64,000 nt of DNA. Source: Euryarchaeota archaeon UBA106. Lineage in GTDB: Archaea > Thermoplasmatota > Poseidoniia > Poseidoniales > Thalassarchaeaceae. The stretch is from assembly GCA_002502365.1 (NCBI GenBank), contig DAOJ01000065.1:7547-71546 (forward strand), in the 5' to 3' direction. The notes under the pieces were generated by a model. That model made no database searches, was not told where the DNA came from, and saw only the letters and a list, made by a program, of their open reading frames with translations. Each line of letters begins with the position of its first letter. Within the stretch, counting starts at the first letter, position 1. Of the stretch, positions 8,401 through 22,481 are shown piece after piece. The position numbers and the translations under genes were made by a program.

Positions 8401-8592
8401 CAGCGACGATTGATTAACGCAATGGATGATCTGAAAGTATCCGAAGATGAAAATGGATCGGTAAGAAATACTGCCGACAGAATTATTCAATTCGAATATG
8501 GAGAGGATGGAATCGATCCGGCTAGAAGCAGAAAAGGACTTCCGTTTGACATTACGAAGGTTCTAGATGATGCATTGGGAGGTGATGAGTGA
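5494..8592 (+). CDS. rpoA1: DNA-directed RNA polymerase subunit A' (Rpb1 N-terminal part)
   Basis: ATGA overlap with the rpoB stop. N-terminal Zn sites [17 protein letters not shown] and CTCNECSQ...CMHCG. Active-site region [10 protein letters not shown] ... [10 protein letters not shown] present. 1032 aa, including a ~130-aa Cys-containing insertion (see findings). Confidence 0.95.
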
Positions 8593-10169
8593 TGGTTGTT
8601 AAGAGTGCAACAAAGAAGAAACTCATGGATCTTGGTATTGCTGAGGAATACGCTCACCGACTAGCTGATGATCGAAAATGGGATAATGTCAAGGTTCTTA
8701 CCGCAGGAGAAATAGCACAAATTTGTGCTACTGATTCTGGTATGGCACAAAACATCTCTGAAGTAATTCAAGGTTCAACTAAAGCAGCCCAAAAGGAGCA
8801 GAAAGCAGAGAAGACTTTGATTCGACGCCGTGTTACTTCCCGCAGAAGAAAGAAGAGTTTACTTCCTTTACAAGAATATGATTCTGAGGATAAAATGAAA
8901 CAAATCCACCGAGATTTGGATATTGAAAACCCAATGTTCACAAGCCTTTCTGATGCTGCAGTAAAAGAAAATATCAGAATTTCACCCAAGACAATTAATG
9001 ACTTAGTCAATGGTTTACTTTCTAGAGGTCAGAAAAAACTGACACCTGCTCAAGCGCGCAAGGTTGTTACTTGCGCAGCAGCAGATATGAAAATGTCTCG
9101 AGCAGACCCACATGAAGCGGTTGGAATTACCACAGCTCAATCGATTGGAGAACCGGGTACTCAAATGACTATGCGTACTTTCCACTATGCTGGTGTAGCA
9201 ACCGTCAACGTTACACAAGGTCTTCCTCGCGTTATCGAAATCGTTGATGCAAGAAAGGTTCCTAAGACGCCTACAATGCTCGTCTACCTTAATGAAAATG
9301 ATTCCAAGGGCAAACCTTTGCGAAGTAACGAGAAGAAGGTTCAGGCCATTGCTGCCGCAATAGAAACCACCACCACCAGAGATATTGCTTCGATAGATGT
9401 TGATGTTGCGCAAAGGCATCTTAATTTGGAATTAAATACCAAAAATATTCGATTGAAGAAAATGACTGGTGCAGAAGTCAGAGACAAATTACAAAGAGCT
9501 CTTCGACTATACATTCAGGCTGACGACGAAGATAAGCCTAAGGTTCTAAAGGTCATTCCAGGTGTGACAAAAGAGGATGATTTAGCCCAATTAGCAAATG
9601 ACCCACCTACATACACTGCTCTATTGCAATTAGAAGATAAAATCAAGAAATTACGTTTGAAAGGCCTACCCGATATTGTTAGAGCGAATGTTCAGGGTCC
9701 AAACAAGGACACTGGCGAATACTACATTGCAACCATTGGTTCTAACCTATCCAAGGTCAGTATGTTCGATGGCGTTGACAGAGGTCGCACTTACACCAAT
9801 AACATCAATGAAATTTATGGATATCTTGGTGTAGAAGCTGCCAGACAAGCCATAGTTAATGAGATGAAAGATACACTCGAGGGCGCAGGTCTAGAGGTAG
9901 ATACTAGACACTTAATTACAGTCGCAGATGTAATGACAAGCGAAGGTGAGGTTCGAGCAATTGGCCGTCATGGTGTTAGTGGAACTAAACACAGTATCTT
10001 GGCACGATCTGCATTCGAAGTGTCAGTTAACCATCTATTGCGAGCCGGTATTATTGGAGAAAGAGACCATCTACGTGGTGTAACTGAGAATATCATAGTT
10101 GGTCAACCTGTTGCCTTAGGGACAGGTAGCGTAGATCTATTCTACATACCTGAAGAGGCAGGTGCTTGA
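8589..10169 (+). CDS. rpoA2: DNA-directed RNA polymerase subunit A'' (Rpb1 C-terminal part) with ~125-aa N-terminal HhH-like extension
   Basis: ATGA overlap with the rpoA' stop. Canonical A'' core ([28 protein letters not shown] ... trigger-loop region). N-terminal 60 aa are paralogous to the RpoH N-terminus (VKSxTKKxLxxLGIxxExAHxLADD). Confidence 0.9.
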
Positions 10170-10564: not shown

Positions 10565-11518
10565 ATGGATGATGCCATCGGGGATTTACTCAAACTCCGT
10601 GGCGTCGAACTATCCAAGGCTGAGAGTGTAACCGAATCATTTGGATTCCGTTGCTTAGGCATAGCTGAAAAAATACCCGAATTACAGTCTGATAACTCCT
10701 CTTCTGTCTACGTTTGGCATATTTCCAAAGGTATTCTTCCAGTTAGTGTAGCAGAAGCTGAGAGATGGTTAGTGGATGTGCCTAAAGGTGCACATTGGGT
10801 ATTGAGTGAAAGGGAGTTTCAAGAGCAAGCGAGTAAACTATTGTATTCAGAGTTAAAAATTGAACTTTGGAGTCCTAAAAAACTCAGTCAATGGATTGGT
10901 GAGGCGGTCTTGAGTGGTGAACTCACAGCCCATGCAGCTCTTTTTCCTTCTACAGAAATAACCCCTGAAGATGAAGAAAAATCTGCTTCCGCAGAAAACC
11001 TCATTGTTTTACAAGCCAAAATCAATCTTGACGAATGGAGTATTCAAAGAGGGATTGAATATCTTGATGCGAAACCTATTCTTTTACAAGCAAGGATTTG
11101 GAATATCGTTGGAGCCTTAGTTAGCCCTGATGGGGATAGGGAAGAGGGTGAATGGAGAGTTCTAGAAGACCCTTGGGCCGATCGTTTAGAGATGTATAAT
11201 TCAGAGAATGGTCTACAAAATCCACTAAACCTTAGAATAATCAATTCGCAAGAAAACAAACTTCTTTCAGAATCAGACCTAAGAGTGATGCTAGTTGGAA
11301 TTCTGGAAACACGAAAGCAAAGAAAACAACAAACCTCAGAGGGGACATCCGTTACAAGCACAATGTTAGAAAGATGGTCATTCGATTCAGAAGGTGCTCA
11401 TCTAGAATGTTTACCCGCAGCCATACCGGGCTGGATTTTAGATTATGATGGAAGAAAGGAGATACTCCATTCAAGGAATGGAAGAACATATGATCTCAGT
11501 TTCTTTGAAGCGCCATAA
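10565..11518 (+). CDS. Hypothetical protein (317 aa), occupying the position where nusA normally follows rpl30e
   Basis: Long ORF in an AT-rich genome. No recognisable NusA KH motifs or other domain signatures by eye. Confidence 0.5.
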   Translation: MDDAIGDLLKLRGVELSKAESVTESFGFRCLGIAEKIPELQSDNSSSVYVWHISKGILPVSVAEAERWLVDVPKGAHWVLSEREFQEQASKLLYSELKIELWSPKKLSQWIGEAVLSGELTAHAALFPSTEITPEDEEKSASAENLIVLQAKINLDEWSIQRGIEYLDAKPILLQARIWNIVGALVSPDGDREEGEWRVLEDPWADRLEMYNSENGLQNPLNLRIINSQENKLLSESDLRVMLVGILETRKQRKQQTSEGTSVTSTMLERWSFDSEGAHLECLPAAIPGWILDYDGRKEILHSRNGRTYDLSFFEAP

Positions 11519-12377
11519 TTTCGTCTGTTGAAAGGGTGTCTCCAGACATCAATCTGGTCATTAGGTCTGCAACTTCCACTTGTTCTTCTTCTTCAGTGGA
11601 ACCTCCTTCTCTAGCTTCAATAGCCTTTAGCAAATCCTGCATAGAATGTATGCAACGAAGAGAAACGATGTATCTGCCGTGTAGTGAATCTGCCTCCCTC
11701 TTAGCTCTTGTTACCCCCGACTGGGCAGAATTTGCCTTTTCTCGAAGTCTATCGACTTCTTCAGATAACTCCGCCATCAGGTCATGGGCTTCTTGTGCAC
11801 CCACAACTGCTCTTTTCACCTTCTTGTGTGCATCTTCTTGTTTCTTTTCCGCATCCCGAAGTTGAATTTTTAATTCTCTAATCCCACCATCTGATTTTTT
11901 TTCCTTTGCTTCCCTTAATTCTTGGTGTAATTTCTTCATTTTGGATACAAATTCACGTTCCTTTTTTCCAAGGAATCGACCTTCGTTATACTGTCTTTCC
12001 AATCTTTCTATTTCAGTTCTGATTCTACCTGGAGATCTTGTTCTGTCCAATTTCTGTTCTCTTTCATCTTTAGCACCGTTTTCAGCGATTTTTTCTCTGA
12101 AAACGGTTCTAATTTCTCTCAGAGTTTCAGTTCTTTCCGCTCTCAAGTCCTTTAACTCGCGAACGGTTTGATTTGCTTCATCTCTAAGTGACTTTTGATT
12201 TTGAACTTCGGTAATCAATTCCTTTACTTGACGATTTAATTCATTTCTCTCATCTAATAATTTGCGGACCTTAGAATTCCATTGGTCTCTCTCTTCTCGA
12301 TTGTAGGATATTTGTTCTTGTACATCATCACAAAGAGGTTGTAAAATGCCGCGAATTTCCTCGCTTTCCATCTTCAT
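11496..12377 (-). CDS. Coiled-coil protein, paralog C (archaeal COG1340-like uncharacterized coiled-coil family, tentative)
   Basis: 293 aa, heptad-rich and charged (NELNRQVKELITEVQNQKSLRDEANQTVRELKDLRAE...). ATG start. C-terminal L..L(M/L)SG.TL motif shared with paralogs B and D. Confidence 0.7.
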   Translation of the reverse strand: MKMESEEIRGILQPLCDDVQEQISYNREERDQWNSKVRKLLDERNELNRQVKELITEVQNQKSLRDEANQTVRELKDLRAERTETLREIRTVFREKIAENGAKDEREQKLDRTRSPGRIRTEIERLERQYNEGRFLGKKEREFVSKMKKLHQELREAKEKKSDGGIRELKIQLRDAEKKQEDAHKKVKRAVVGAQEAHDLMAELSEEVDRLREKANSAQSGVTRAKREADSLHGRYIVSLRCIHSMQDLLKAIEAREGGSTEEEEQVEVADLMTRLMSGDTLSTDEIMALQRN

Positions 12378-12441
12378 TGAATCAACCTCTCAATATTTCG
12401 TCCTATGGTTTGCATATAAGGGCATTTGGTAAAGAATAATC

Positions 12442-13407
12442 TCACTCTCTTCGGGTTGCAGAATTCCCTTTCCTTGGCCCTCCACGGGTAACACCAAGTT
12501 TACGCATACCCTTTTTCCGGCCTCTTGCTCTTTTTTGTGAGGAATTATTTTCATCATTCGACTTATTCGAATTTTCTGTAATTTCAGTAAGCCCACCAGA
12601 TTCCAGTAGTGCAGACAATTCATTAGTGTTTAAGGCGCCCCCTGTACTAGCTCTATTTTTTACATCTGTGAGCCGTATTTTCTTTCCTTGTTGGGATGTA
12701 ATTTTTAGATATGAACGAATTCTTCCTGATTCTTTGCGTAGTTTCCTTCGTTCAGATTTAATGACATCTAGGCGTTTATCGATACCACTAATTTCCTTAC
12801 TCATCCTCCTAATTTCCTTCCTAGTGATTTTGTTTGAATCTAATTCAGTTCCGTCAGTCACAGATTCTTCTGCATTTTGTTTTGTCTTTTTCGTTGAATC
12901 TAAATCAGTGGTAACCTTTCGTAATTTCTCTATTTGTGTCACATATCTAGTGTGGGCCTGCTCTGCTTCTCTCTTGCGAACAACTGCGGCTTGTAACTCA
13001 AAGAATCTTCTAAATGATTCCAATTCTCTATTGATCGTTGGAACTGCCGTAAGGTCGTTATCGATTGTTGTTAACTTAGAATATGTGTCAGCCATCCATT
13101 CTTCCAAGACAGAAGCAGGTGGTGGGATGGAAATATTGACCTTATCTCGTAATTGCCTTTCTTTGTCGGCTTTTTTCTTAATTTCGTGAAACTCTCTCAA
13201 TAAATTACGTCTTTCCCCATCCGCTTCTTCTATACCACCAACAGCCGATCTTAATGATTTGACAATTTCAACCTGGGAGCGTCGCTCTTGTTTTAGGGAA
13301 TTAAATTCATCATCAAGAGAGCGTAAATCTCTCTCCAATTGTTTGGACTTTTCATCGATTTCGACATGAGGTAATGCCTCAAGGTCATCAAAAAGTCCGT
13401 CACTCAT
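12442..13407 (-). CDS. Coiled-coil protein, paralog B, with basic C-terminal tail (…RKLGVTRGGPRKG)
   Basis: 321 aa. Start ATG overlaps the stop of the upstream paralog A (ATGA). C-terminal ALLESGGLTEI + KLGVTRG motif matches paralog D (LLQSGSLTLG + KLGTTRG). Confidence 0.7.
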   Translation of the reverse strand: MSDGLFDDLEALPHVEIDEKSKQLERDLRSLDDEFNSLKQERRSQVEIVKSLRSAVGGIEEADGERRNLLREFHEIKKKADKERQLRDKVNISIPPPASVLEEWMADTYSKLTTIDNDLTAVPTINRELESFRRFFELQAAVVRKREAEQAHTRYVTQIEKLRKVTTDLDSTKKTKQNAEESVTDGTELDSNKITRKEIRRMSKEISGIDKRLDVIKSERRKLRKESGRIRSYLKITSQQGKKIRLTDVKNRASTGGALNTNELSALLESGGLTEITENSNKSNDENNSSQKRARGRKKGMRKLGVTRGGPRKGNSATRRE

Positions 13408-14294
13408 TCTTCTTCAGCCCCTGGATTCGACGACTTAGATTGTTTTGACTTTATATTCTTGGTTGAAGCGTTATTTGTTTTTCTTCGAGCGAAACTGGAA
13501 TCGCCTCCCTGTTTCACTCTTTTCATATCCTTAAGCAGGTCTGGGTAACCTACTCCTAATTCACTATAGCCATCGGATAATCTACGGCCCCAATGTTCTA
13601 TCGCATAATCAGATTGGGAAAGTAATTCCTTTGCTCTATCCAATTGTCTTCTCAATTCTCGAAGCTCAGATTGTAGTGCTACCTTTTTGTCGTGCAAAGG
13701 CTGTGCCTTTTCAACGGCTTTAATCATATTTTTATGAGCCCTATTTGCAATGGAAAATAAATGAGAAACTTCTCTTCTAGAGTCAATATATTCGGCCATT
13801 TCAGGATTCGAATCCCTTCTTTCTCGGAGCCATTTTTCATTTTGCTCGATCAATTTTTTCCTACGATCAATCATCTTCCTTTCGGCCTTATGGTCCAAGG
13901 CAGAGGTCTGAATTTGCTCTTCAATATCCTCTAATTCTTCGAATAATTTTTCTTTTTTCCAATCAGGATCAAGATTAACCATCCCGCCAGATTCTACCAA
14001 AACATCTCGATGCCCTTTGACTTTGGGAATTAAATCTCTTGCTTTAATTTGCGCTTGATCTCTTTCATCCTTTAATTGGGCTACTAATTCGTTAGCTCTC
14101 TTGTGTGTTTCAACAGATCGAGATACCTTTGGTGTTAAATTCTGTTCCTCAGCCTCCAAGGTTCTGATTACTGTAGGCAACTGGTCATTCAACAACATCC
14201 TTCGGTTCAACAAGGCCTGCGCTAACTGATCGGGCGTTACTGCCAAGAGAGCCTCAGAGTCCATATGCATGCGGCGCAAATTAGAATCTGCCAT
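13404..14294 (-). CDS. Coiled-coil protein, paralog A
   Basis: Coiled-coil-rich ORF. Track start at 14303 is GTG; the in-frame ATG (MADSNLRR...) is at 14294. First gene of a three-gene translationally coupled minus-strand unit. Confidence 0.65.
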   Translation of the reverse strand: MADSNLRRMHMDSEALLAVTPDQLAQALLNRRMLLNDQLPTVIRTLEAEEQNLTPKVSRSVETHKRANELVAQLKDERDQAQIKARDLIPKVKGHRDVLVESGGMVNLDPDWKKEKLFEELEDIEEQIQTSALDHKAERKMIDRRKKLIEQNEKWLRERRDSNPEMAEYIDSRREVSHLFSIANRAHKNMIKAVEKAQPLHDKKVALQSELRELRRQLDRAKELLSQSDYAIEHWGRRLSDGYSELGVGYPDLLKDMKRVKQGGDSSFARRKTNNASTKNIKSKQSKSSNPGAEEE

Positions 14295-14360
14295 AAAGGT
14301 CACTACGTGACCTATTTTTGGGGTTTCCTTGATAGGTAGACCTGCTCCGACTTCTCGCCA

Positions 14361-16253
14361 ATGCAGGCAAGCCTTAGTCGAAGCAGCATGTTTGTATTGG
14401 TAGCATCAATAATTCTAGTGACGCTATTTTCGATTAATGTCAGTGCAGAGGAACGATTTACAATAGAAAACCCATTGGATTGGGATACCACTCTAATCGA
14501 TGCATCTACATCAGAGCCATCTGGAAACGATTCTGCATATGCTGGAGATTACATCCTTATCTCAATTGAAATCGATAATACAGATACAACTGCCGGCCAT
14601 GATGAGTGGTGGTTCATAATGGGGATTCAAGGCCAGTCCTCTCCCGAATTGACGGGTTTCCTTGAGGGGTCACAAGATGTTGTTTTGGTTAATTTCTCCT
14701 TTGGACCTCTTTCTGAGGGAGTCTTGCTTCTTACATTCGGCATAGAATCTTCTGGTCAAAATAAGAGTCTAACTTTGGAAGTGGAACCAAATCCGATTAA
14801 TCTCACAGCTGCAGGCTCACCTGAGATAGCAATAACAGGTGAGCCTGTTCACAAGGGAGATACGTTAACCGCCTCAATTTTAGTCCATAACCAAGGTAAC
14901 TCACCTCAAATAGTCAGTCTTCAAATTATTCAAGGCAACCTAAGTCCTATTCAAGGAGCAGGGGTAGAAATCAATCCTGGGTCAAGTAGAGAAGTCTCTA
15001 CCTCTTTCCTGCCTTCATCAGTCGGCTCCTTGAATTTAGATTGGAGTGTAGTCTCCAATAGCGGAGGGGTTGCCCGTGAATTAAACGGAAGTACCACAAT
15101 AGAGGTTCTAGATTCTCAATCATTGGAACTTGTAATTGACTCTACGGATTGGGATTTAGAAAATGGATTAAATTCAGAAGTATCTCTTTATCTTAGCCAA
15201 GGTCGATCTCGAACCGTAGAGATAGAGATTTCTATAGTTGATCAGGCCATAGAATCTACACTACAAACTTTCCAATTCATGATGGATCCTGGAAAAAGAG
15301 ATTTAACACTTCCACTTGGAAATCCATCTGCTGACTCTTTGATTATCAGAGTGACTCCAATATCTTGGTTAGCCACTAATGACATAGAAATTCAAACTAC
15401 ATTAGTGCCGCCTTTGTTGGATTTGGAAGTAATTGCAGGTGTTCCAAATCCAAGTGCACCGATAGTAGGAGGGAGTTTACAACTTCCATTTAGTTTAACA
15501 AATAACGGAAATACTCCTACGCTAATGGGTGAGGCGAGGGTAGTGAGAAATTCTGACAGAATGATACTTGATTCTGTCACTGTAGAATCGGTTAATTCTG
15601 GTGGTGTTTTCAATGGTGATTTTTCGATAAATAACTGGCCTGATTCGAAGGTAGTCGAAGTAGAAATTATTTGGATTACTAGTGGTCAGACAAAAAGCAA
15701 ACTGCTAGAAATTGAAACGTTTTCTGATCCCAACGAAGACGCCGAATTGCCTTTTGATTTGATGGCGTCAATTTACGGAACTATCTCCGGCTTGGTAATT
15801 GTAATCTTCATTTTAGTGTTATACCGGACAGTTTCTGAAAACGTAGAGGACACTGGTAAATCAAGATTTAATCAATTGCGCGTCTCCCGAGGGGAGAAGA
15901 AGAAAACAAGAACCGCTGAAAAAAGAGAGGTCAACTGTCCGGAGTGCGATCAGCGATTGAATATCCCGTATTCTCATTCAGGAGCAGTCAAATGCCCTGC
16001 ATGCACATCGAGGTTTACAGTCGAAGCAATACCCACAAATGATGAGGATAAATCTCAAAATGCCTCCCCTTCAGAGCGGGAATCGATCGAAAATAATTCA
16101 GCTGTATCTAATGATTTAATTGCAATGTCTGCTACTGATATGTTATCCTGTCCTAGTTGTGACCAAACGCTCAAAGTTCCTCTTGAAAGGAGACCGGTAA
16201 AGGCAAGGTGCCCTGCTTGTCGTTCAGAATTCCTAGCCGAAGTAGGTGACTAG
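14361..16253 (+). CDS. Single-pass membrane protein: signal peptide, ~450-aa extracellular Ig/CARDB-like repeat region, TM helix, cytoplasmic tail with two C4 zinc ribbons
   Basis: N-terminal hydrophobic signal (MFVLVASIILVTLFSINVSA). Repeated 'xVxNQGNSPQxVSLQI'-type beta-rich segments. TM segment LMASIYGTISGLVIVIFILVLY. Then CPECDQ...CPACTSRF and CPSCDQ...CPACRSEF. Confidence 0.7.
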   Translation: MQASLSRSSMFVLVASIILVTLFSINVSAEERFTIENPLDWDTTLIDASTSEPSGNDSAYAGDYILISIEIDNTDTTAGHDEWWFIMGIQGQSSPELTGFLEGSQDVVLVNFSFGPLSEGVLLLTFGIESSGQNKSLTLEVEPNPINLTAAGSPEIAITGEPVHKGDTLTASILVHNQGNSPQIVSLQIIQGNLSPIQGAGVEINPGSSREVSTSFLPSSVGSLNLDWSVVSNSGGVARELNGSTTIEVLDSQSLELVIDSTDWDLENGLNSEVSLYLSQGRSRTVEIEISIVDQAIESTLQTFQFMMDPGKRDLTLPLGNPSADSLIIRVTPISWLATNDIEIQTTLVPPLLDLEVIAGVPNPSAPIVGGSLQLPFSLTNNGNTPTLMGEARVVRNSDRMILDSVTVESVNSGGVFNGDFSINNWPDSKVVEVEIIWITSGQTKSKLLEIETFSDPNEDAELPFDLMASIYGTISGLVIVIFILVLYRTVSENVEDTGKSRFNQLRVSRGEKKKTRTAEKREVNCPECDQRLNIPYSHSGAVKCPACTSRFTVEAIPTNDEDKSQNASPSERESIENNSAVSNDLIAMSATDMLSCPSCDQTLKVPLERRPVKARCPACRSEFLAEVGD

Positions 16254-16305
16254 TGGCAATTAATTGAGAGGTGAGTTCCTGACTGAGTTGAGTGAGTTTG
16301 AAGAA

Positions 16306-16929
16306 ATGTACCTCAAACGAATGTTTGAGATACACACTAAACACCCTTCAGCCATCGTCAAGACCTCTAATTTAGCAGAGATGATGGGTGTAAGTGCAGC
16401 ATCAACCACAGAAATGATTCAACGTTTAGCAAATAGGGATTTGGTGACTTACATTCCATACAAGGGTTCTCGCCTTACAACTGAAGGATTCTCCATTGCT
16501 GGCAAAATTAAACGACGTCAATTACTAATTGAAATGCTATTGACAGATGTAATTGGGTTTCAAGGTGATATTCATGCAATCGCTTGCGAAATGGAACATG
16601 CGATAAATAATGAGTTAGAAGCGGCGATAGATTCCCTCTTGGGCTATCCTGAGGAAACCAAATCAGGAGAACGTATTCCACAAGTAGCTAGACACTTTGA
16701 AACTAATATTCAAACCCCTCTTTTGCCAATATCGAATATGCCTAATGGAAGCACTGGAGAAATAGAGTTCATTGCTCTTTCAGGACAAGATTCGAAGACT
16801 TTGGATAATCTAAATTTTGGAATTGGTAATTTCGTTTCAAAAACAGATGATGATTTGTATATTGATACAAAACAAATTTCTCTTTCCGATAGTTTATCCA
16901 AGAAAATTTTAGTCAGATTAGGAGGCTGA
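16306..16929 (+). CDS. DtxR/MntR-family metal-dependent transcriptional regulator
   Basis: MYLKRMFEIHTKHPSAIVKTSNLAEMMGVSAASTTEMIQRLANRDLVTYIPYKGSRLTTEG matches the DtxR N-terminal wHTH and dimerisation region. Track ORF starts at TTG 16264; the ATG at 16306 is the likely start. Confidence 0.75.
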   Translation: MYLKRMFEIHTKHPSAIVKTSNLAEMMGVSAASTTEMIQRLANRDLVTYIPYKGSRLTTEGFSIAGKIKRRQLLIEMLLTDVIGFQGDIHAIACEMEHAINNELEAAIDSLLGYPEETKSGERIPQVARHFETNIQTPLLPISNMPNGSTGEIEFIALSGQDSKTLDNLNFGIGNFVSKTDDDLYIDTKQISLSDSLSKKILVRLGG

Positions 16930-16932
16930 ATC

Positions 16933-18522
16933 ATGGAAGATGATGACACTTATAGTTTAGAGAAAGCTCTAAACTCTTTAACAGATTTACCTGCAGAGGA
17001 AGAGTCCAATCTAGAAGAACAAAGCCCACATAATCATGAATCGCAATTAGGAATAGTAGAAACTGCCCAAATCAAATCCTCTAAAATTCATAGTTTGAGA
17101 AGCCAGGAAAAAACCCTCCTCCGGATAGACCGACTACTAGTAAGTGGTGGGATTCGTTTTGTTTTGTTTTTACCGTTAATTGTAATCGTTAATTTTGGTC
17201 TTGCACACTCTTACAGAAACACTACACCAGAATGGTGGATCGAACATATGCAGGAAGTCGCACCAGTCGAAATGCACTTAGGGATACATTTCCTATCGTT
17301 ATTTATTTTAGTAGCAAACATGGCTTTGTTAATTCTGCTATTCCGTCTACTAAGTGTCACAAAAATGATTTTTCAACACGAAGCTGAGGCTCTTACAACA
17401 GCTGGATTAACATTCAAAAGTTCACACGGTTATGCCGAAATGCGTGCAACGATTAATGGCTCTAGGAGACAATTAGGTGCAACGATAACTTTCCTACTAT
17501 TTGCAATAATTTTCCTTGCTATTGCCTTATGGTTAGCACCTGATGGTGATTTGTCCCCAAGGCTTGTGGCTCTCTCAACAGGCTCTGTGCTCGCAGGTCA
17601 TGGAACCTTCCTTGTATCGAATAATTCTCGATTCAATGCCAACGAACCCTGGGGCATGCTGAATGCTTTCTCGCCTCCTATACACCCGGCATTATTGACA
17701 AGACCTTTTTCAGATGTAATTAAGGCCCATATTGACCCATTGTTGGCAGTTAGGATCTCTGAATACCTCCGCACAGTCGAAAACGAAGTTAATCCTGGTT
17801 TTTCAATGACTCAGATGCAAGAAACTCTTCTACATCTTCTACATCTAAGGAGAAGGTCATTAATTGATGAAAAGGAATTCAGAGCCGCACTTTCCGAAAT
17901 GATTGATACGGGTTCGATTGACAGATTTTTCGACCACCCAGAATTAGGTCAGGAGACTTGGGACCGCCTTTTATCGAGAGCTATGATAGATTGTGCCCCA
18001 TTTTTCCGCCTCCATGACAGGTTACATATGAGGCATCAAACCGGTAGAATAGACGATGTTTGGTTTGATGTGGATATGGAGAATTTAGTAGTTGGCCCTG
18101 CAAACTTATTTGCATTTATTCTTAATCAAACTAATGAGGTTCAAGATCTAGTTTTAAGGGTTCAAACTCCAGACTTTAGACCTAATGAATGCGAATATAG
18201 ACTCAAGGTCGACCCTCATAAATCGATTTCATTTGATGGCATTATTTCCCCTAAACTCACAGAAAATTTACCTAATTTACTTAATTCTACCAGAATAATT
18301 TGGCAGAGTTTACTTCCATCCGGAACAGGGGAATCTACCGTTACAATCCGGCTTGAAGATTTGCAAGGGAATTTAATTGCGGGTAGAGTATTAACAGTCC
18401 AAATCCGAAATGATTTGTTTACACGTCTAAGAATGACAACGGGCGCACTCTTCATATTAGGGGCTATAATTGCCATCTTGTCGCCAATATTACCATTTGT
18501 TGGTTCAGTACTTGGCCTGTGA
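16933..18522 (+). CDS. Polytopic membrane protein, hypothetical (acidic N-terminus, 4-5 TM, ~270-aa soluble domain, C-terminal TM)
   Basis: ATG preceded by GGAGG. Hydrophobic segments read from the translation. No transporter signature recognised. Confidence 0.55.
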   Translation: MEDDDTYSLEKALNSLTDLPAEEESNLEEQSPHNHESQLGIVETAQIKSSKIHSLRSQEKTLLRIDRLLVSGGIRFVLFLPLIVIVNFGLAHSYRNTTPEWWIEHMQEVAPVEMHLGIHFLSLFILVANMALLILLFRLLSVTKMIFQHEAEALTTAGLTFKSSHGYAEMRATINGSRRQLGATITFLLFAIIFLAIALWLAPDGDLSPRLVALSTGSVLAGHGTFLVSNNSRFNANEPWGMLNAFSPPIHPALLTRPFSDVIKAHIDPLLAVRISEYLRTVENEVNPGFSMTQMQETLLHLLHLRRRSLIDEKEFRAALSEMIDTGSIDRFFDHPELGQETWDRLLSRAMIDCAPFFRLHDRLHMRHQTGRIDDVWFDVDMENLVVGPANLFAFILNQTNEVQDLVLRVQTPDFRPNECEYRLKVDPHKSISFDGIISPKLTENLPNLLNSTRIIWQSLLPSGTGESTVTIRLEDLQGNLIAGRVLTVQIRNDLFTRLRMTTGALFILGAIIAILSPILPFVGSVLGL

Positions 18523-18567
18523 CTTTTCATCAGGTCCATTCAAGAAGCAAACACCTGTGGCCGGCCC

Positions 18568-19554
18568 GTGTCTGAAGAGGTTACCAACCCAGACGATGAC
18601 CTTAGGAGTCGTCTGCATGCAATGGAGACAAAACTCCGACGTATGAGAGATAATCGTAACAGTCACAATGAAAATGCACGTAGAGCTGCTGATTCAAGGA
18701 ATGCTGTCCAAGAGCAAGCCAAGGTAATCAGAGAATCAATCGATGAATTGAAGTTACAACAAAAGGAGATAAGAGATAAAGCACTTATTCACAAGGCCAA
18801 GCGAGATGAAATCCAAGGCCATATCCGTGAATTAATCTCCAAAAAGCGTGGTCGAAGAGATGAAGAAAGAGGTTCAAAATCAATTGTTATTGAATTGTCT
18901 GAAACGGAAGGTCAAATAGAAAGAATCGAAAGACGATTAGAAACAGATGGTCGATTAAAATTAGAGGATGAAAATAAACTCCTCAAAGAATTAAAAAAAT
19001 TAATTGGTAAGCGAAATGAACTTCTGCCAGCGGTAAAGCAACACCAAGCGATAACGATTGACCTTGGAGATATGGATGAATCCATAACACGACTCAAGGC
19101 TGAAGCAGATTCTGAACACCAATCAATGGTAGATTGCCATAAACAGGCAGATGAAGTGTGGGAGGAAATTAAACCTCTCTTTGAAGAGAGAGATTTCTTG
19201 AGAGCCGAAGGTGATAGACTTCACAACGCTTTCCTCGAGGCCCGAAAATCAGCCGATGAGGTTCATACCGAAATGAAGGTGCTTTTAGATCAAGTTAATG
19301 AAATTCGAGATTCAATCAAAGCCGCACGCGAAGAACGTGAAAAGACGATTAAAGATCATAATCAGTCCGTAAGGGATGCAATTAGGTCTCCTTCTGAAAG
19401 TGAAGAATTAGCAGGCTCCTTAGAAGAAATGTTGTTGCAGAGCGGGTCGCTTACATTGGGCGGAACCGGAATGGAAAAAGAACCAGTCACTTCAGAAGGT
19501 AAGGTTAAGAAAACCAAAAAGAGAAAGTTAGGCACCACTAGAGGAAAGGTTTGA
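18568..19554 (+). CDS. Coiled-coil protein, paralog D, basic C-terminal tail (…KKRKLGTTRGKV)
   Basis: 328 aa, charged heptads. C-terminal motif shared with paralog B. GTG start in track. Confidence 0.7.
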   Translation: MSEEVTNPDDDLRSRLHAMETKLRRMRDNRNSHNENARRAADSRNAVQEQAKVIRESIDELKLQQKEIRDKALIHKAKRDEIQGHIRELISKKRGRRDEERGSKSIVIELSETEGQIERIERRLETDGRLKLEDENKLLKELKKLIGKRNELLPAVKQHQAITIDLGDMDESITRLKAEADSEHQSMVDCHKQADEVWEEIKPLFEERDFLRAEGDRLHNAFLEARKSADEVHTEMKVLLDQVNEIRDSIKAAREEREKTIKDHNQSVRDAIRSPSESEELAGSLEEMLLQSGSLTLGGTGMEKEPVTSEGKVKKTKKRKLGTTRGKV

Positions 19555-21402: not shown

Positions 21403-21539
21403 TACCTCCAAGCATAGGCAGCCCTTGAAGAACTCCCTTTCGGCATTTGGAAAGTTAGAGTATAGGGGCTTTCATTCAAATACTGGATGTAGGTCGGCCG
21501 GTTTGCAAACGGGGTAGCCCCCGATACGAGGTGTTTCTC

Positions 21540-22481
21540 ATGGCAAAGGGCGCAAAAGCAAGGGCAGCGGCACGCAAACAGAGAGACAAGTGGAAGGCAA
21601 AGCGCTGGTACACAATTCGAGCACCTCGTAATCCTTGGTCATTCAGAGTCATTGGGGAAACCCTTGCAGAAGAGCCTGAGCAGTTGATTGGCCGCACCTA
21701 CGATATAATGCAGAATGAACTAGATGGTGACTTCTCAAAGATGCACGTACAGGTGATTTTCAGGATCACGGAAGCACTAGGTGGAGACGCACTAACCGAA
21801 TTCATAGGTCACAATGTTTTGAAAGACCATATTCGCCGTCAAATTCGCCGTCATCGAGGTAAGGTAGATGATACTGTTGATGTTGTTACCGAGGATGGTT
21901 ATTATGTCAGATTCAAGCCTTTACTTATTTCTCGATCAAGAGTTAAGTCCAGCCAAAAGTCCGCTATGAGAGCCAATGCACGTGATACAATCCTAACCAT
22001 GGGTGCAAGTTCCACTTGGATTCAATTACAAAAAGCTGTACTAGATGGCACAATGGAGGATGCAATCAAGGAATCAGTTTCCAAGGTCAGTCCTGTAAGG
22101 ACAGTAATGATTCGTCGAAGTCAATTACTTCAGAGTGGAGTAATAGTGGAAGATGGTCCTACATTGGACGAAATTCATGCCGAAGAAAAGGCAGCCGCGG
22201 CAGCAGCTGAAGTTGAAGAAGTAGACGTATTGGCTGCTGCAGAGGCTTCAGCAGAACTATCAGAAGTTGATGAGTCGAATGTTAGTGAGGATGTAGAATC
22301 CGAGGCAGAGGGTGATGATTCCGGAAATAATGAAGATTCAATCGACATTCCAGAGACTAATGATAACACAGAGCAAGATTACGACTCTATGACCGTAGCC
22401 GAATTAAAGCAATTACTCAAGGAAGCTGGAAAACCAGTTTCTGGTAAGAAAGCAGACTTAATTGCTCGACTGCAAGAGTAA
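21540..22481 (+). CDS. rps3ae: 30S ribosomal protein S3Ae (eS1) fused to an acidic low-complexity linker and a C-terminal SAP-like motif
   Basis: MAKGAKARAAARKQRDKWKAKRWYTIRAPRNPW...: classic S3Ae N-terminus and core (~205 aa). Then an E/D/A-rich ~75-aa linker. Then MTVAELKQLLKEAGKPVSGKKADLIARLQE (SAP consensus L..L.V.ELR..L...GL...G.K..LI.RL). Confidence 0.85.
   Translation: MAKGAKARAAARKQRDKWKAKRWYTIRAPRNPWSFRVIGETLAEEPEQLIGRTYDIMQNELDGDFSKMHVQVIFRITEALGGDALTEFIGHNVLKDHIRRQIRRHRGKVDDTVDVVTEDGYYVRFKPLLISRSRVKSSQKSAMRANARDTILTMGASSTWIQLQKAVLDGTMEDAIKESVSKVSPVRTVMIRRSQLLQSGVIVEDGPTLDEIHAEEKAAAAAAEVEEVDVLAAAEASAELSEVDESNVSEDVESEAEGDDSGNNEDSIDIPETNDNTEQDYDSMTVAELKQLLKEAGKPVSGKKADLIARLQE

Follow-up and report, generated by a model that had tools for sequence, protein, structure and literature searches.

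Apparent four-fold expansion of the DUF7121/COG1340 coiled-coil hairpin family in a conserved divergent gene cluster of Marine Group II archaea

Introduction

Do four neighbouring coiled-coil genes of an uncultured marine archaeon belong to one family, and do their products work together? The question is raised by contig DAOJ01000065.1 of Euryarchaeota archaeon UBA106, of which we analysed a stretch of 64,000 nucleotides (64 kb; hereafter the window, with coordinates counted from its first letter). A preliminary description of the window had singled out four open reading frames (ORFs), here called A, B, C and D, and had proposed that they encode paralogous proteins with a common C-terminal motif, three of them translationally coupled. 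We found that, on profile comparison, the pan-archaeal DUF7121/COG1340 hairpin protein appears to have expanded four-fold at this locus, an expansion that we saw in Poseidoniales alone, and that the genes of the locus form two divergent sets, C<-B<-A and M1->DtxR->M2->D, in which M1 and M2 are predicted membrane proteins and DtxR is a DtxR-type regulator. We consider the descriptive part of this account solid; it comprises the family assignment, the paralogous relation of A, C and D, the tails as an innovation, the conserved divergon and the palindrome at its centre.

COG1340 was listed as a highly conserved archaeal group of unknown function in a 2005 survey (PMC1322226), and no other account of DUF7121/COG1340 relevant here was found in the literature searched. 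Similarly, that literature yielded no account of the tail peptide, of the operator or of the way the four genes are arranged in Poseidoniales, most subscription-journal papers being outside the reach of the search. The locus is present on many marine metagenome contigs and its close relatives are metagenome-assembled genomes (MAGs) named Thalassarchaeaceae or Poseidoniales; the host belongs to Marine Group II (Poseidoniales, Thalassarchaeaceae-like). Archaea of this group abound in the surface ocean and are uncultured, and their cell biology is read almost wholly from sequence.

Profile evidence for family membership

The four genes and their assignments from profile comparison are:

Paralog A, 13404..14294, minus strand: 296 aa as called in the preliminary description; diverged DUF7121 paralog
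Paralog B, 12442..13407, minus strand: 321 aa; very diverged, probable DUF7121 relative
Paralog C, 11496..12377, minus strand: 293 aa; canonical DUF7121/COG1340 orthologue, without a tail
Paralog D, 18568..19554, plus strand: 328 aa; full-length diverged DUF7121 paralog, last gene of M1-DtxR-M2-D

As the preliminary description had it, these ORFs encode highly charged proteins of 293-328 aa, in which Asp, Glu, Lys and Arg together make up 36-42% of the residues; the proteins are soluble, with no transmembrane segment in A-D by a simple hydropathy scan, and the AlphaFold2 (AF2) models of C and B are nearly all helical. It had also placed the proteins near a COG1340-like family for which no function is established, and this placement is borne out by the match of C to Pfam DUF7121 (PF23435, COG1340; gathering threshold 29 bits) at 48.5 bits and by the profile alignments given below. 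D (27.8 bits) and A (24.6 bits) fall slightly under the threshold and B has no match, and precomputed Pfam matches (E<=1e-5) likewise place DUF7121 on orthologues of A, C and D and not on those of B. Pairwise BLASTP among the four is weak, with the best value for C-D (6e-4), followed by A-C (4e-3), and with no significant match for B, so that paralogy rests on profile comparisons instead.

A canonical profile built from 31 non-Poseidoniales members was compared by hhalign with one alignment per paralog, each of about 80 orthologues taken from genome loci (percentages are hhalign probabilities):

C against the canonical profile: 100%, E=3e-43, full length
D against the canonical profile: 98.7%, E=2.6e-16, full length
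A against the canonical profile: 97.2%, E=3.7e-11, central 145 columns
B against the canonical profile: 91%, E=1e-6, partial

Reversed-profile controls, in which composition and helical periodicity are retained, gave E-values of 0.016 to 0.48, indicating that the signal is not a coiled-coil bias. When the same 31-sequence profile was used with HMMER, it matched C at 177.5 bits, D at 78.1 and A at 43.2 and did not match B, and a family hidden Markov model (HMM) gave 95.9 bits for D, collinear across model positions 6-259, and 52.7 bits for A. Additionally, an exhaustive phmmer search with C returned 297 representative proteins at E<=1e-3, most of them 280-300 aa long and aligned end to end. By these scores C is a bona fide DUF7121 member, and D and A are clear diverged paralogs; a profile scan of the window found no further member of the family.

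B is a probable, very diverged DUF7121 paralog, so the four-way paralogy proposed earlier stands by profile for C, D and A and as a probability for B. It aligns to the family through two signatures with about 55 residues inserted between them, one being the C-terminal helix-turn-helix and the other the second-arm motif, which is K-x-x-A-[DE]-x-x-H-x-x-Y-[IV] in the family and K-x-x-A-E-x-A-H-x-x-Y-V in B (RKREAEQAHTRYV in its own copy). We observe 328 homologues of B at E<=1e-3. Among the 120 of these that were listed, the named ones are from Thalassarchaeaceae or from unclassified Thermoplasmatota or euryarchaeal MAGs, and B homologues seem to be restricted to MAGs of Poseidoniales type. A DUF7121 match is on record for none of the 120, and about 15 carry the unrelated coiled-coil family PF16043/DUF4795.

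Relatives of these proteins bear the legacy database name 'phosphoserine phosphatase', a JGI label of 'uncharacterized coiled-coil DUF342 family protein' and, at NCBI, now 'coiled-coil protein'. No HAD or other phosphatase family was found in A-D at E<=1 (Pfam, NCBIfam), the modelled C and B being all-helical, and no Pfam DUF342 match (DUF342/FapA) was found at E<=1 in any of the four; the first two labels are thus unsupported. Cluster entries for ten distant representatives carry MAG-derived names only. Other candidate families were also rejected. Matches to SMC, Rad50 and archaeal SMC-related families are confined to coil regions of NCBIfam models (8-23 bits against cut-offs of 300-1087), and the proteins are about 300 aa long with no globular ATPase domain. 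For ESCRT-III, PspA and Vipp1 there is no Snf7 or PspA_IM30 match at E<=1 in Pfam and none among the 50 best Foldseek matches in the Protein Data Bank (PDB). An MIT-interacting motif (MIM1) in the C-terminus of C fits at LxxRL and not in the remainder. A sequence search of the PDB with C gave nothing meaningful.

Fold and residue conservation

Upon examining the AF2 model of C (predicted local distance difference test, pLDDT, 84), we observe an antiparallel coiled-coil hairpin with helices at residues 2-110, at the tip (116-131 and 138-160) and along the return (166-257), followed by a C-terminal helix-turn-helix (269-277 and 284-292). In the model of B, helices span 14-93, 97-117, 125-184 and 196-237, the return arm is broken, the helix-turn-helix lies at 246-269 and the tail, its linker included, is disordered (275-321).

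We derived a conservation profile from 59 diverse family members, in C numbering. The most conserved positions are R30, N34, R44, N48, R65 (100%), N69, V72, K76 and R79 in the first arm, L126, E127, T132 and E140 at the tip (motif (L/I)E..T..E), H184, Q195, H198 (100%), M201, D230 and H233 in the second arm, and G279 (97%), L282, L290 and Q291 in the C-terminus. The conserved Arg and His residues follow the 3-4 hydrophobic spacing and so occupy core (a/d) positions, and they pair across the antiparallel arms as R30/H233, R44/Q219, R65/H198 and R79/H184, with residue numbers that sum to 263 throughout. In D two layers are swapped as pairs, R65Q/H198W and N69R/Q195D, and 100% of 78 orthologues show each of these changes; the change of both sides of a layer together gives independent support for the hairpin register. 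The four Arg/His layers of the core recur every 14-21 residues with layers of Asn against Asp/Gln alongside.

Each paralog retains a different subset of the ancestral signatures (Arg/His layers, Asn/Asp-Gln layers, tip and helix-turn-helix):

C: core layers all kept; tip T132 lost; helix-turn-helix kept; no tail
D: three core layers kept, R65/H198 and N69/Q195 swapped on both sides; tip kept; helix-turn-helix degenerate; basic peptide
A: distal layers R79/H184 and N69/Q195 kept, N-terminal arm diverged; tip kept (I126-E127-T132-E140); helix-turn-helix degenerate; basic stretch ending EEE
B: only the H233 equivalent kept; tip not aligned; helix-turn-helix kept; basic peptide

Such complementary retention would be expected if duplicated subunits of an oligomer had split the ancestral functions between them.

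Two C-terminal extensions

The family ends in a hallmark C-terminus, a-E-D-i-F-e-R-F-K-k-G-E-K-L-S-T-E-D-L-M-x-L-Q-K-a-G-L-L, and the paralogs differ in what follows it. B keeps the helix-turn-helix (STGGALNTNELSALLESGGL) and then runs on for about 50 aa, and D has a degenerate helix-turn-helix (SLEEMLLQSGSLTLGG), after which come a linker and a basic tail. The elements are:

C hallmark helix-turn-helix, 11499..11582, minus strand: EVADLMTRLMSGDTLSTDEIMALQRN; motif kept, protein ends there
B basic tail motif, 12445..12516, minus strand: KKGMRKLGVTRGGPRKGNSATRRE; core at 12481-12498; after a variable polar linker; AF2 pLDDT <50, disordered
D basic tail motif, 19507..19551, plus strand: KKTKKRKLGTTRGKV; core at 19528-19545

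The preliminary description had aligned 'LMSGDTLST' of C with the SGxLT element of B and D. The string of C is indeed a family motif, the G-E-K-L-S-T turn, and its counterpart in B is 'STGGALNTNE'; the alignment with B and D is out of register by one helix, since 'ALLESGGLTE' of B and 'LLQSGSLTL' of D are degenerate forms of the family end 'LQKaGLL', which lies one helix later than the GEKLST turn.

The basic motif that had been reported at the ends of B and D is confirmed and conserved. Its core in both is [KR][KR]LG[VT]TRG, of which the window translated in six frames contains no other copy, and it is reached through variable, polar or acidic linkers of 25-30 aa that are predicted to be disordered (linker and basic peptide together about 45 aa in B and D). 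Across 30 orthologues of B at 49-77% identity, the tail has the consensus KK-x-x-[RK][RK]-L-G-V-[TA]-R-G-G-x-R-[RK]-G-x-x-A-x-[RK]-R-E, with K298, K299, L304, G305, V306, R308, R312, G314 and R320 invariant. Most of the 78 orthologues of D carry [KR][KR]-x-[KR][KR]-L-G-T-[TS]-R-G-[KR], and two clades have the variants RKPKSFRGRGK and RKVG(S/A)FRKxRK; in the same two clades the B tail moves from LGVTRGG to (L/I)GVSRRG. Aligned profile to profile, the two tails score E=1.6e-5, and the reversed-profile control scores 0.48. Nucleic acid or acidic lipid had been suggested in the preliminary description as a possible ligand of the basic tail. The invariance of L, G, T and G in proteins that otherwise barely align suggests a specific docking site over generic charge.

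Outside Poseidoniales, all 185 members with a recognisable end motif stop within 14 residues of it, 184 of them within nine, and the basic tail motif is found in none of the 185. The tails of B and D are a Poseidoniales innovation.

A second conserved end exists in the cluster. In almost all of its orthologues, A finishes with GGxSSFA(R/K), a Lys-rich stretch and (G)EEE-COOH (A residues ~255-296, window 13404-13500), a terminal peptide of charge opposite to that of the B and D tail ends.

Separately, at position 9847 of one metagenome contig (L001; about 12531 in the window, B codon 293), an A-to-T change turns AGA into TGA and cuts B just before the basic tail, in DNA that is otherwise identical across 119 aligned bases; this tail-less B could be a sequencing error or a natural variant.

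Two divergent gene sets and the region between them

The stop codon of A and the start codon of B share ATGA, as had been reported, and the overlap is kept in other genomes, distant relatives included. Of the three genes proposed to be coupled, A and B alone are overlap-coupled; C lies 64 nt from B in the window and 58-76 nt from it in other genomes. In the co-directional M1-DtxR-M2-D set the intergenic gaps are 10, 3 and 45 nt. The features between and within the sets are:

B-C spacer, 12378..12441, minus strand: 64 nt; TATA-like TTATAT and GAGG ahead of the C start
Palindrome, 14296..14314, no strand: 19 bp, AAGGTCAC-NTA-GTGACCTT; between the divergent A and M1 promoters, in the 66-nt A-M1 gap
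DtxR/IdeR/MntR-family regulator, 16264..16929, plus strand: inside the M1-M2-D operon; the sole regulator nearby

The start of A at 14294, as called in the preliminary description, also needs revision. The ATGGA(C) at 14264, its third Met, is the sole ATG conserved across genomes and lies about 30 nt after a TATA-like box, and the true start is probably this one, giving 286 aa.

We compared 89 loci in total, 80 from Poseidoniales genomes (C identity 43-95%) and nine near-identical or related metagenome loci. The palindrome is unique in the window at up to 3 mismatches, with 0.04 occurrences expected by chance. Its exact 17-mer is found once, and in the same place, in 65 of the 89 loci, and with up to 2 mismatches it is found in all other loci through L079, i.e. 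to about 52% C identity; the most divergent clade (L080-L089) has another palindrome, AGCCCACATAGGGCT, at the same position. On the A side the palindrome adjoins TTTAT/TATAAT, about 30 nt before the conserved ATGGA, and on the M1 side TTGATAC, about 27 nt before the M1 ATG. This layout suggests two back-to-back archaeal TATA promoters with leaderless mRNAs.

The regulator encoded in the M1 set matches both Pfam domains of its family, Fe_dep_repress (PF01325) at 49.6 bits against a threshold of 26 and Fe_dep_repr_C (PF02742) at 60.3 against 27, as well as PDB chains of DtxR, IdeR and MntR at E=2e-18 to 3e-6. Its M15, C108, E111 and H112 align with M10, C102, E105 and H106, which we take to be the primary-site ligands of DtxR. 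In most of the main clade its recognition helix has the sequence ASTTEM, and most members of the clade that carries the other palindrome have ASVTEM. The palindrome is probably the operator of this embedded regulator.

Gene neighbourhood across Poseidoniales

We observed the A-B-C / M1-DtxR-M2-D arrangement in about 80 Poseidoniales genomes at species level, down to 43% C identity, and the order S3Ae-PdxS-D-M2-DtxR-M1 / A-B-C / U317-L30e-RpoA2 is held wherever the contig reaches. The outcomes that the preliminary description had named beforehand as telling against it were an unconserved tail, scattered neighbourhoods and a known family of unrelated function; none was observed, and the neighbourhood is conserved within Poseidoniales. 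The two membrane proteins of the plus-strand set are:

M1, 14361..16253, plus strand: 630 aa; predicted signal/anchor at residues 9-27, extracellular Ig-like/CARDB region, transmembrane segment at 469-487 and two zinc ribbons
M2, 16933..18522, plus strand: 529 aa; five predicted transmembrane segments (68-199 and 499-517); also a domain of about 300 aa

M1 matches CARDB at 24.1 bits (Pfam), with zinc-ribbon families also matched. The ribbons (CPxC...CPxC) are encoded at about 15933-16025 and 16140-16232, in a predicted cytoplasmic tail of 143 aa, and their patterns, CPxCxQRLxIPxxHxGxVKCPAC and CPxCxQxLKVPxxRRPVxxRCPACRxEF, are both kept in all complete orthologues. M2 is present in every locus reaching its position and has no relatives in Pfam, NCBIfam or PDB.

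Further genes of the region carry features of their own:

U317, 10565-11518, plus strand: orphan protein of 317 aa, after L30e on the same strand; its 3' end overlaps that of C by 23 nt
S3Ae, 21531-22481, plus strand: C-terminal SAP domain (Pfam, E=1.4e-13) after an acidic linker
RNA polymerase A'', 8589-10169, plus strand: 526 aa; Rpb1_5 match

U317 is found in every Poseidoniales locus extending that far, and no relative was found in Pfam, NCBIfam or PDB; archaeal RNA polymerase operons usually carry NusA at this position. To our knowledge, a SAP fusion is unusual for a ribosomal protein. The Rpb1_5 match of A'' spans residues 79-469 and yet covers only some 220 positions of the profile; a large insertion specific to the lineage is implied, together with an N-terminal extension.

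Single-copy relatives

In five non-Poseidoniales loci that we examined, there is a single DUF7121 gene each, with quite different neighbours. In three loci of Methanomassiliicoccales type, a gene for a KaiC/GvpD-like P-loop ATPase (about 540 aa, DUF7125 match) and two small HTH_20 genes precede the DUF7121 gene on its own strand:

L090, 4277-7870: KaiC/GvpD-like ATPase and DUF7121 genes
L091, 4225-7870: KaiC/GvpD-like ATPase and DUF7121 genes
L093, 3284-6870: KaiC/GvpD-like ATPase and DUF7121 genes

The KaiC/GvpD-like neighbour is a possible functional lead for DUF7121. One of the five outside loci has neither this ATPase nor SRP54 by its DUF7121 gene. In two Thermoplasmata loci (L091 7001-10266 and L094 6001-8464), SRP54 adjoins the DUF7121 gene or sits one gene off.

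Discussion

What might four such proteins do together? The reading that we favour, tentatively and at somewhat less than an even chance, is a co-regulated assembly of four hairpins whose B and D tails join the same partner, most plausibly M1 or M2 through its cytoplasmic parts. The DtxR-type regulator, sensing Fe(II) or Mn(II), would bind the palindrome and switch both operons together, and the hairpins of A-D would co-assemble as a heteromeric coiled-coil bundle or rod, in which subfunctionalised subunits stand in for the homo-oligomer of the single-copy relatives. The tails of B and D would serve as tethered peptides that dock on a single folded partner shared by both. Candidates are M1, with its two cytoplasmic zinc ribbons, or M2, with its cytoplasmic domain, and docking on either would tie the assembly to the membrane on its inner face. 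The links that are more specific than gene order are the A/B overlap, the tight M1-DtxR-M2-D spacing, the presence of the tail peptide in each operon and the common control region. For the filament or membrane scaffold proposed in the preliminary description, indirect support may be seen in the tight operon that D forms with M1 and M2, in the M1 zinc ribbons kept by all complete orthologues and in the palindrome common to both operons.

Several observations weigh against this assembly. The scaffold idea is drawn from gene context, and we infer the hetero-oligomerisation and the pairing of tails with partners. The entire 20-kb region is collinear in all genomes sampled, unrelated housekeeping genes (S3Ae, PdxS, L30e, RpoA2) included, and in one order of streamlined genomes such region-wide collinearity makes gene order weak evidence of functional linkage. 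The TATA-like box in the B-C spacer may give C a separate promoter. The single-gene loci outside Poseidoniales have other neighbours, and an M1- or M2-like partner is not a general feature of the family. The homology of B is based on the hhalign value of 91% and two short motifs. The link between regulator and operator is drawn from proximity only, and the correlation between recognition helix and palindrome is suggestive and confounded by phylogeny. A metagenome scan for further regulon members with a 14-base pattern of the palindrome was uninformative, as it returned mostly unrelated environmental contigs (8 of the 120 were this locus); two other low-GC metagenome matches with the full 17-mer have almost no ORFs.

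The same collinearity is the starting point of another account, in which A-D are old duplicates with separate or redundant roles that stay adjacent because the whole region does, the palindrome serving only to autoregulate the DtxR operon. Every gene of the 20-kb region, housekeeping genes included, holds its place in all loci, C has its own upstream spacer of 64 nt with a TATA-like box, and the single-copy members examined elsewhere have unrelated neighbours, as this account would have it. Against it stand the same invariant tail peptide on B in one operon and D in the other, which otherwise barely align, the conserved ATGA coupling of A and B, the complementary subsets of ancestral signatures among the paralogs and the fact that the palindrome abuts the TATA-like box on the A side, and we judge it unlikely. 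Somewhat less unlikely is that the proteins are rods associated with nucleic acid, acting in chromatin, transcription or translation, with tails like those of RGG, AT-hook or histone proteins and a C-terminus akin to a SAP/HeH DNA- or RNA-binding motif. The tails are strongly basic with RGG- and GPRKG-like strings, FKkGEKLSTEDLMxLQKaG resembles by eye the helix-extension-helix of SAP (a true SAP domain being present on S3Ae of the window), the cluster lies between the RNA polymerase/L30e genes and S3Ae, neighbours in other Thermoplasmata include SRP54, PCNA and TFIIS-type genes, and the Arg/His/Asn layers repeat every 14-21 residues along the rod. However, no SAP or other nucleic-acid-binding domain is found in A-D (Pfam, E<=1), the conserved Arg and His sit in the core (a/d) and not on the surface, a tail in which L, G, T and G are invariant suits a specific pocket better than charge-driven binding, D shares its operon with two membrane proteins, and the adjacency to information-processing genes is part of the region-wide collinearity.

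Two further explanations are in our view very unlikely. The proteins could be partners of P-loop ATPases, resembling McdB or the N-terminus of ParB, and their tail would stimulate or dock a ParA/MinD/KaiC-type ATPase that positions cargo. The N-termini of ParB proteins carry (K/R)xGLG(R/K)G-type peptides that stimulate ParA, and McdB-type adaptors are charged coiled-coils with basic disordered ends; the KaiC/GvpD-like ATPase and two HTH genes that the DUF7121 gene follows in the three Methanomassiliicoccales loci fit this picture. The likeness of RKLGVTRG to the ParB peptide is loose and weak, the Methanomassiliicoccales proteins lack the tail, and no ParA/MinD/KaiC-like or cytoskeletal gene is present among the 24 ORFs scanned at 8.6-35.7 kb of the window. 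Alternatively, the locus could be a metal-stress module, its operons derepressed under iron or manganese limitation, with M1 and M2 sensing or taking up metal and the His/Asp/Asn-rich cores binding it. A DtxR-type regulator with an intact Met/Cys/Glu/His set in the operon, a conserved putative operator between the promoters and invariant His, Asp and Asn layers in the coils all agree with this proposal; set against it, the His/Arg layers are family-wide and also occur in archaea without a DtxR neighbour, Arg in those layers argues against metal sites, and M1 and M2 match no transporter family.

Beyond the co-regulated assembly joined to M1 or M2, we can imagine a bolder version that we hold to be quite unlikely, in which DUF7121 proteins in general are subunits of an unrecognised archaeal cytoskeletal or scaffold polymer that takes its register from the buried Arg/His/Asn layers, the Poseidoniales version being four-subunit, metal-regulated and membrane-anchored, with tails clipped to the zinc ribbons of a surface-exposed Ig-domain protein. 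If this were true, the envelope would be linked directly to a scaffold inside the cell, in a group that ranks among the most abundant uncultured archaea of the ocean, and if the parts assemble at all, the result would be a membrane-linked coiled-coil structure of a kind new for archaea. Failing that, a clean annotation is still gained: 'phosphoserine phosphatase' is a misnomer, B is probably a distant family member and the start of A is moved. Four subfunctionalised paralogs show which ancestral DUF7121 sites can be separated, and the locus offers handles for the family in a short invariant peptide, two candidate membrane partners, and a putative operator with a metal-sensing regulator that predicts the timing of expression.

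Relation to known systems

The closest likeness is to DUF7121/COG1340 itself. C shares with it the length, the two-arm hairpin, the Arg/His layers, the tip motif and the GEKLSTEDLMxLQK helix-turn-helix, D and A share the arms and the tip, and B shares the second-arm motif and the helix-turn-helix. The relatives examined outside the order are single-gene in each locus and end at the helix-turn-helix, whereas here there are four copies in a fixed divergon, two of which carry a linker and a basic peptide and one a basic stretch ending EEE-COOH.

The arms of SMC, Rad50 and MukB and the hairpins of methyl-accepting chemoreceptors are likewise long antiparallel two-helix coiled-coils, and they provide the sole Foldseek matches (best E=7e-3, TM about 0.3-0.6). 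The proteins described here have no ATPase head, hinge, zinc hook, HAMP domain or signalling tip, their NCBIfam scores are 9-23 bits where cut-offs lie at 567-1087, and the likeness is generic to the fold. By analogy only, the SNARE four-helix bundles, which contain a buried polar 'zero layer', also comprise several diverged coiled-coil paralogs with buried polar or charged layers, which could set register and partner choice. They differ in that the present hairpins are intramolecular and antiparallel, with about 100 residues per arm, and there is neither sequence or fold kinship nor evidence of membrane fusion.

Finally, the regulator resembles DtxR, IdeR and MntR in both Pfam domains (above threshold), in its matches to solved structures, in its primary-site ligands and in the palindrome at its own divergent promoter. 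The palindrome differs from the classical DtxR box, and the linked genes encode coiled-coil and orphan membrane proteins in place of the known metal transporters.

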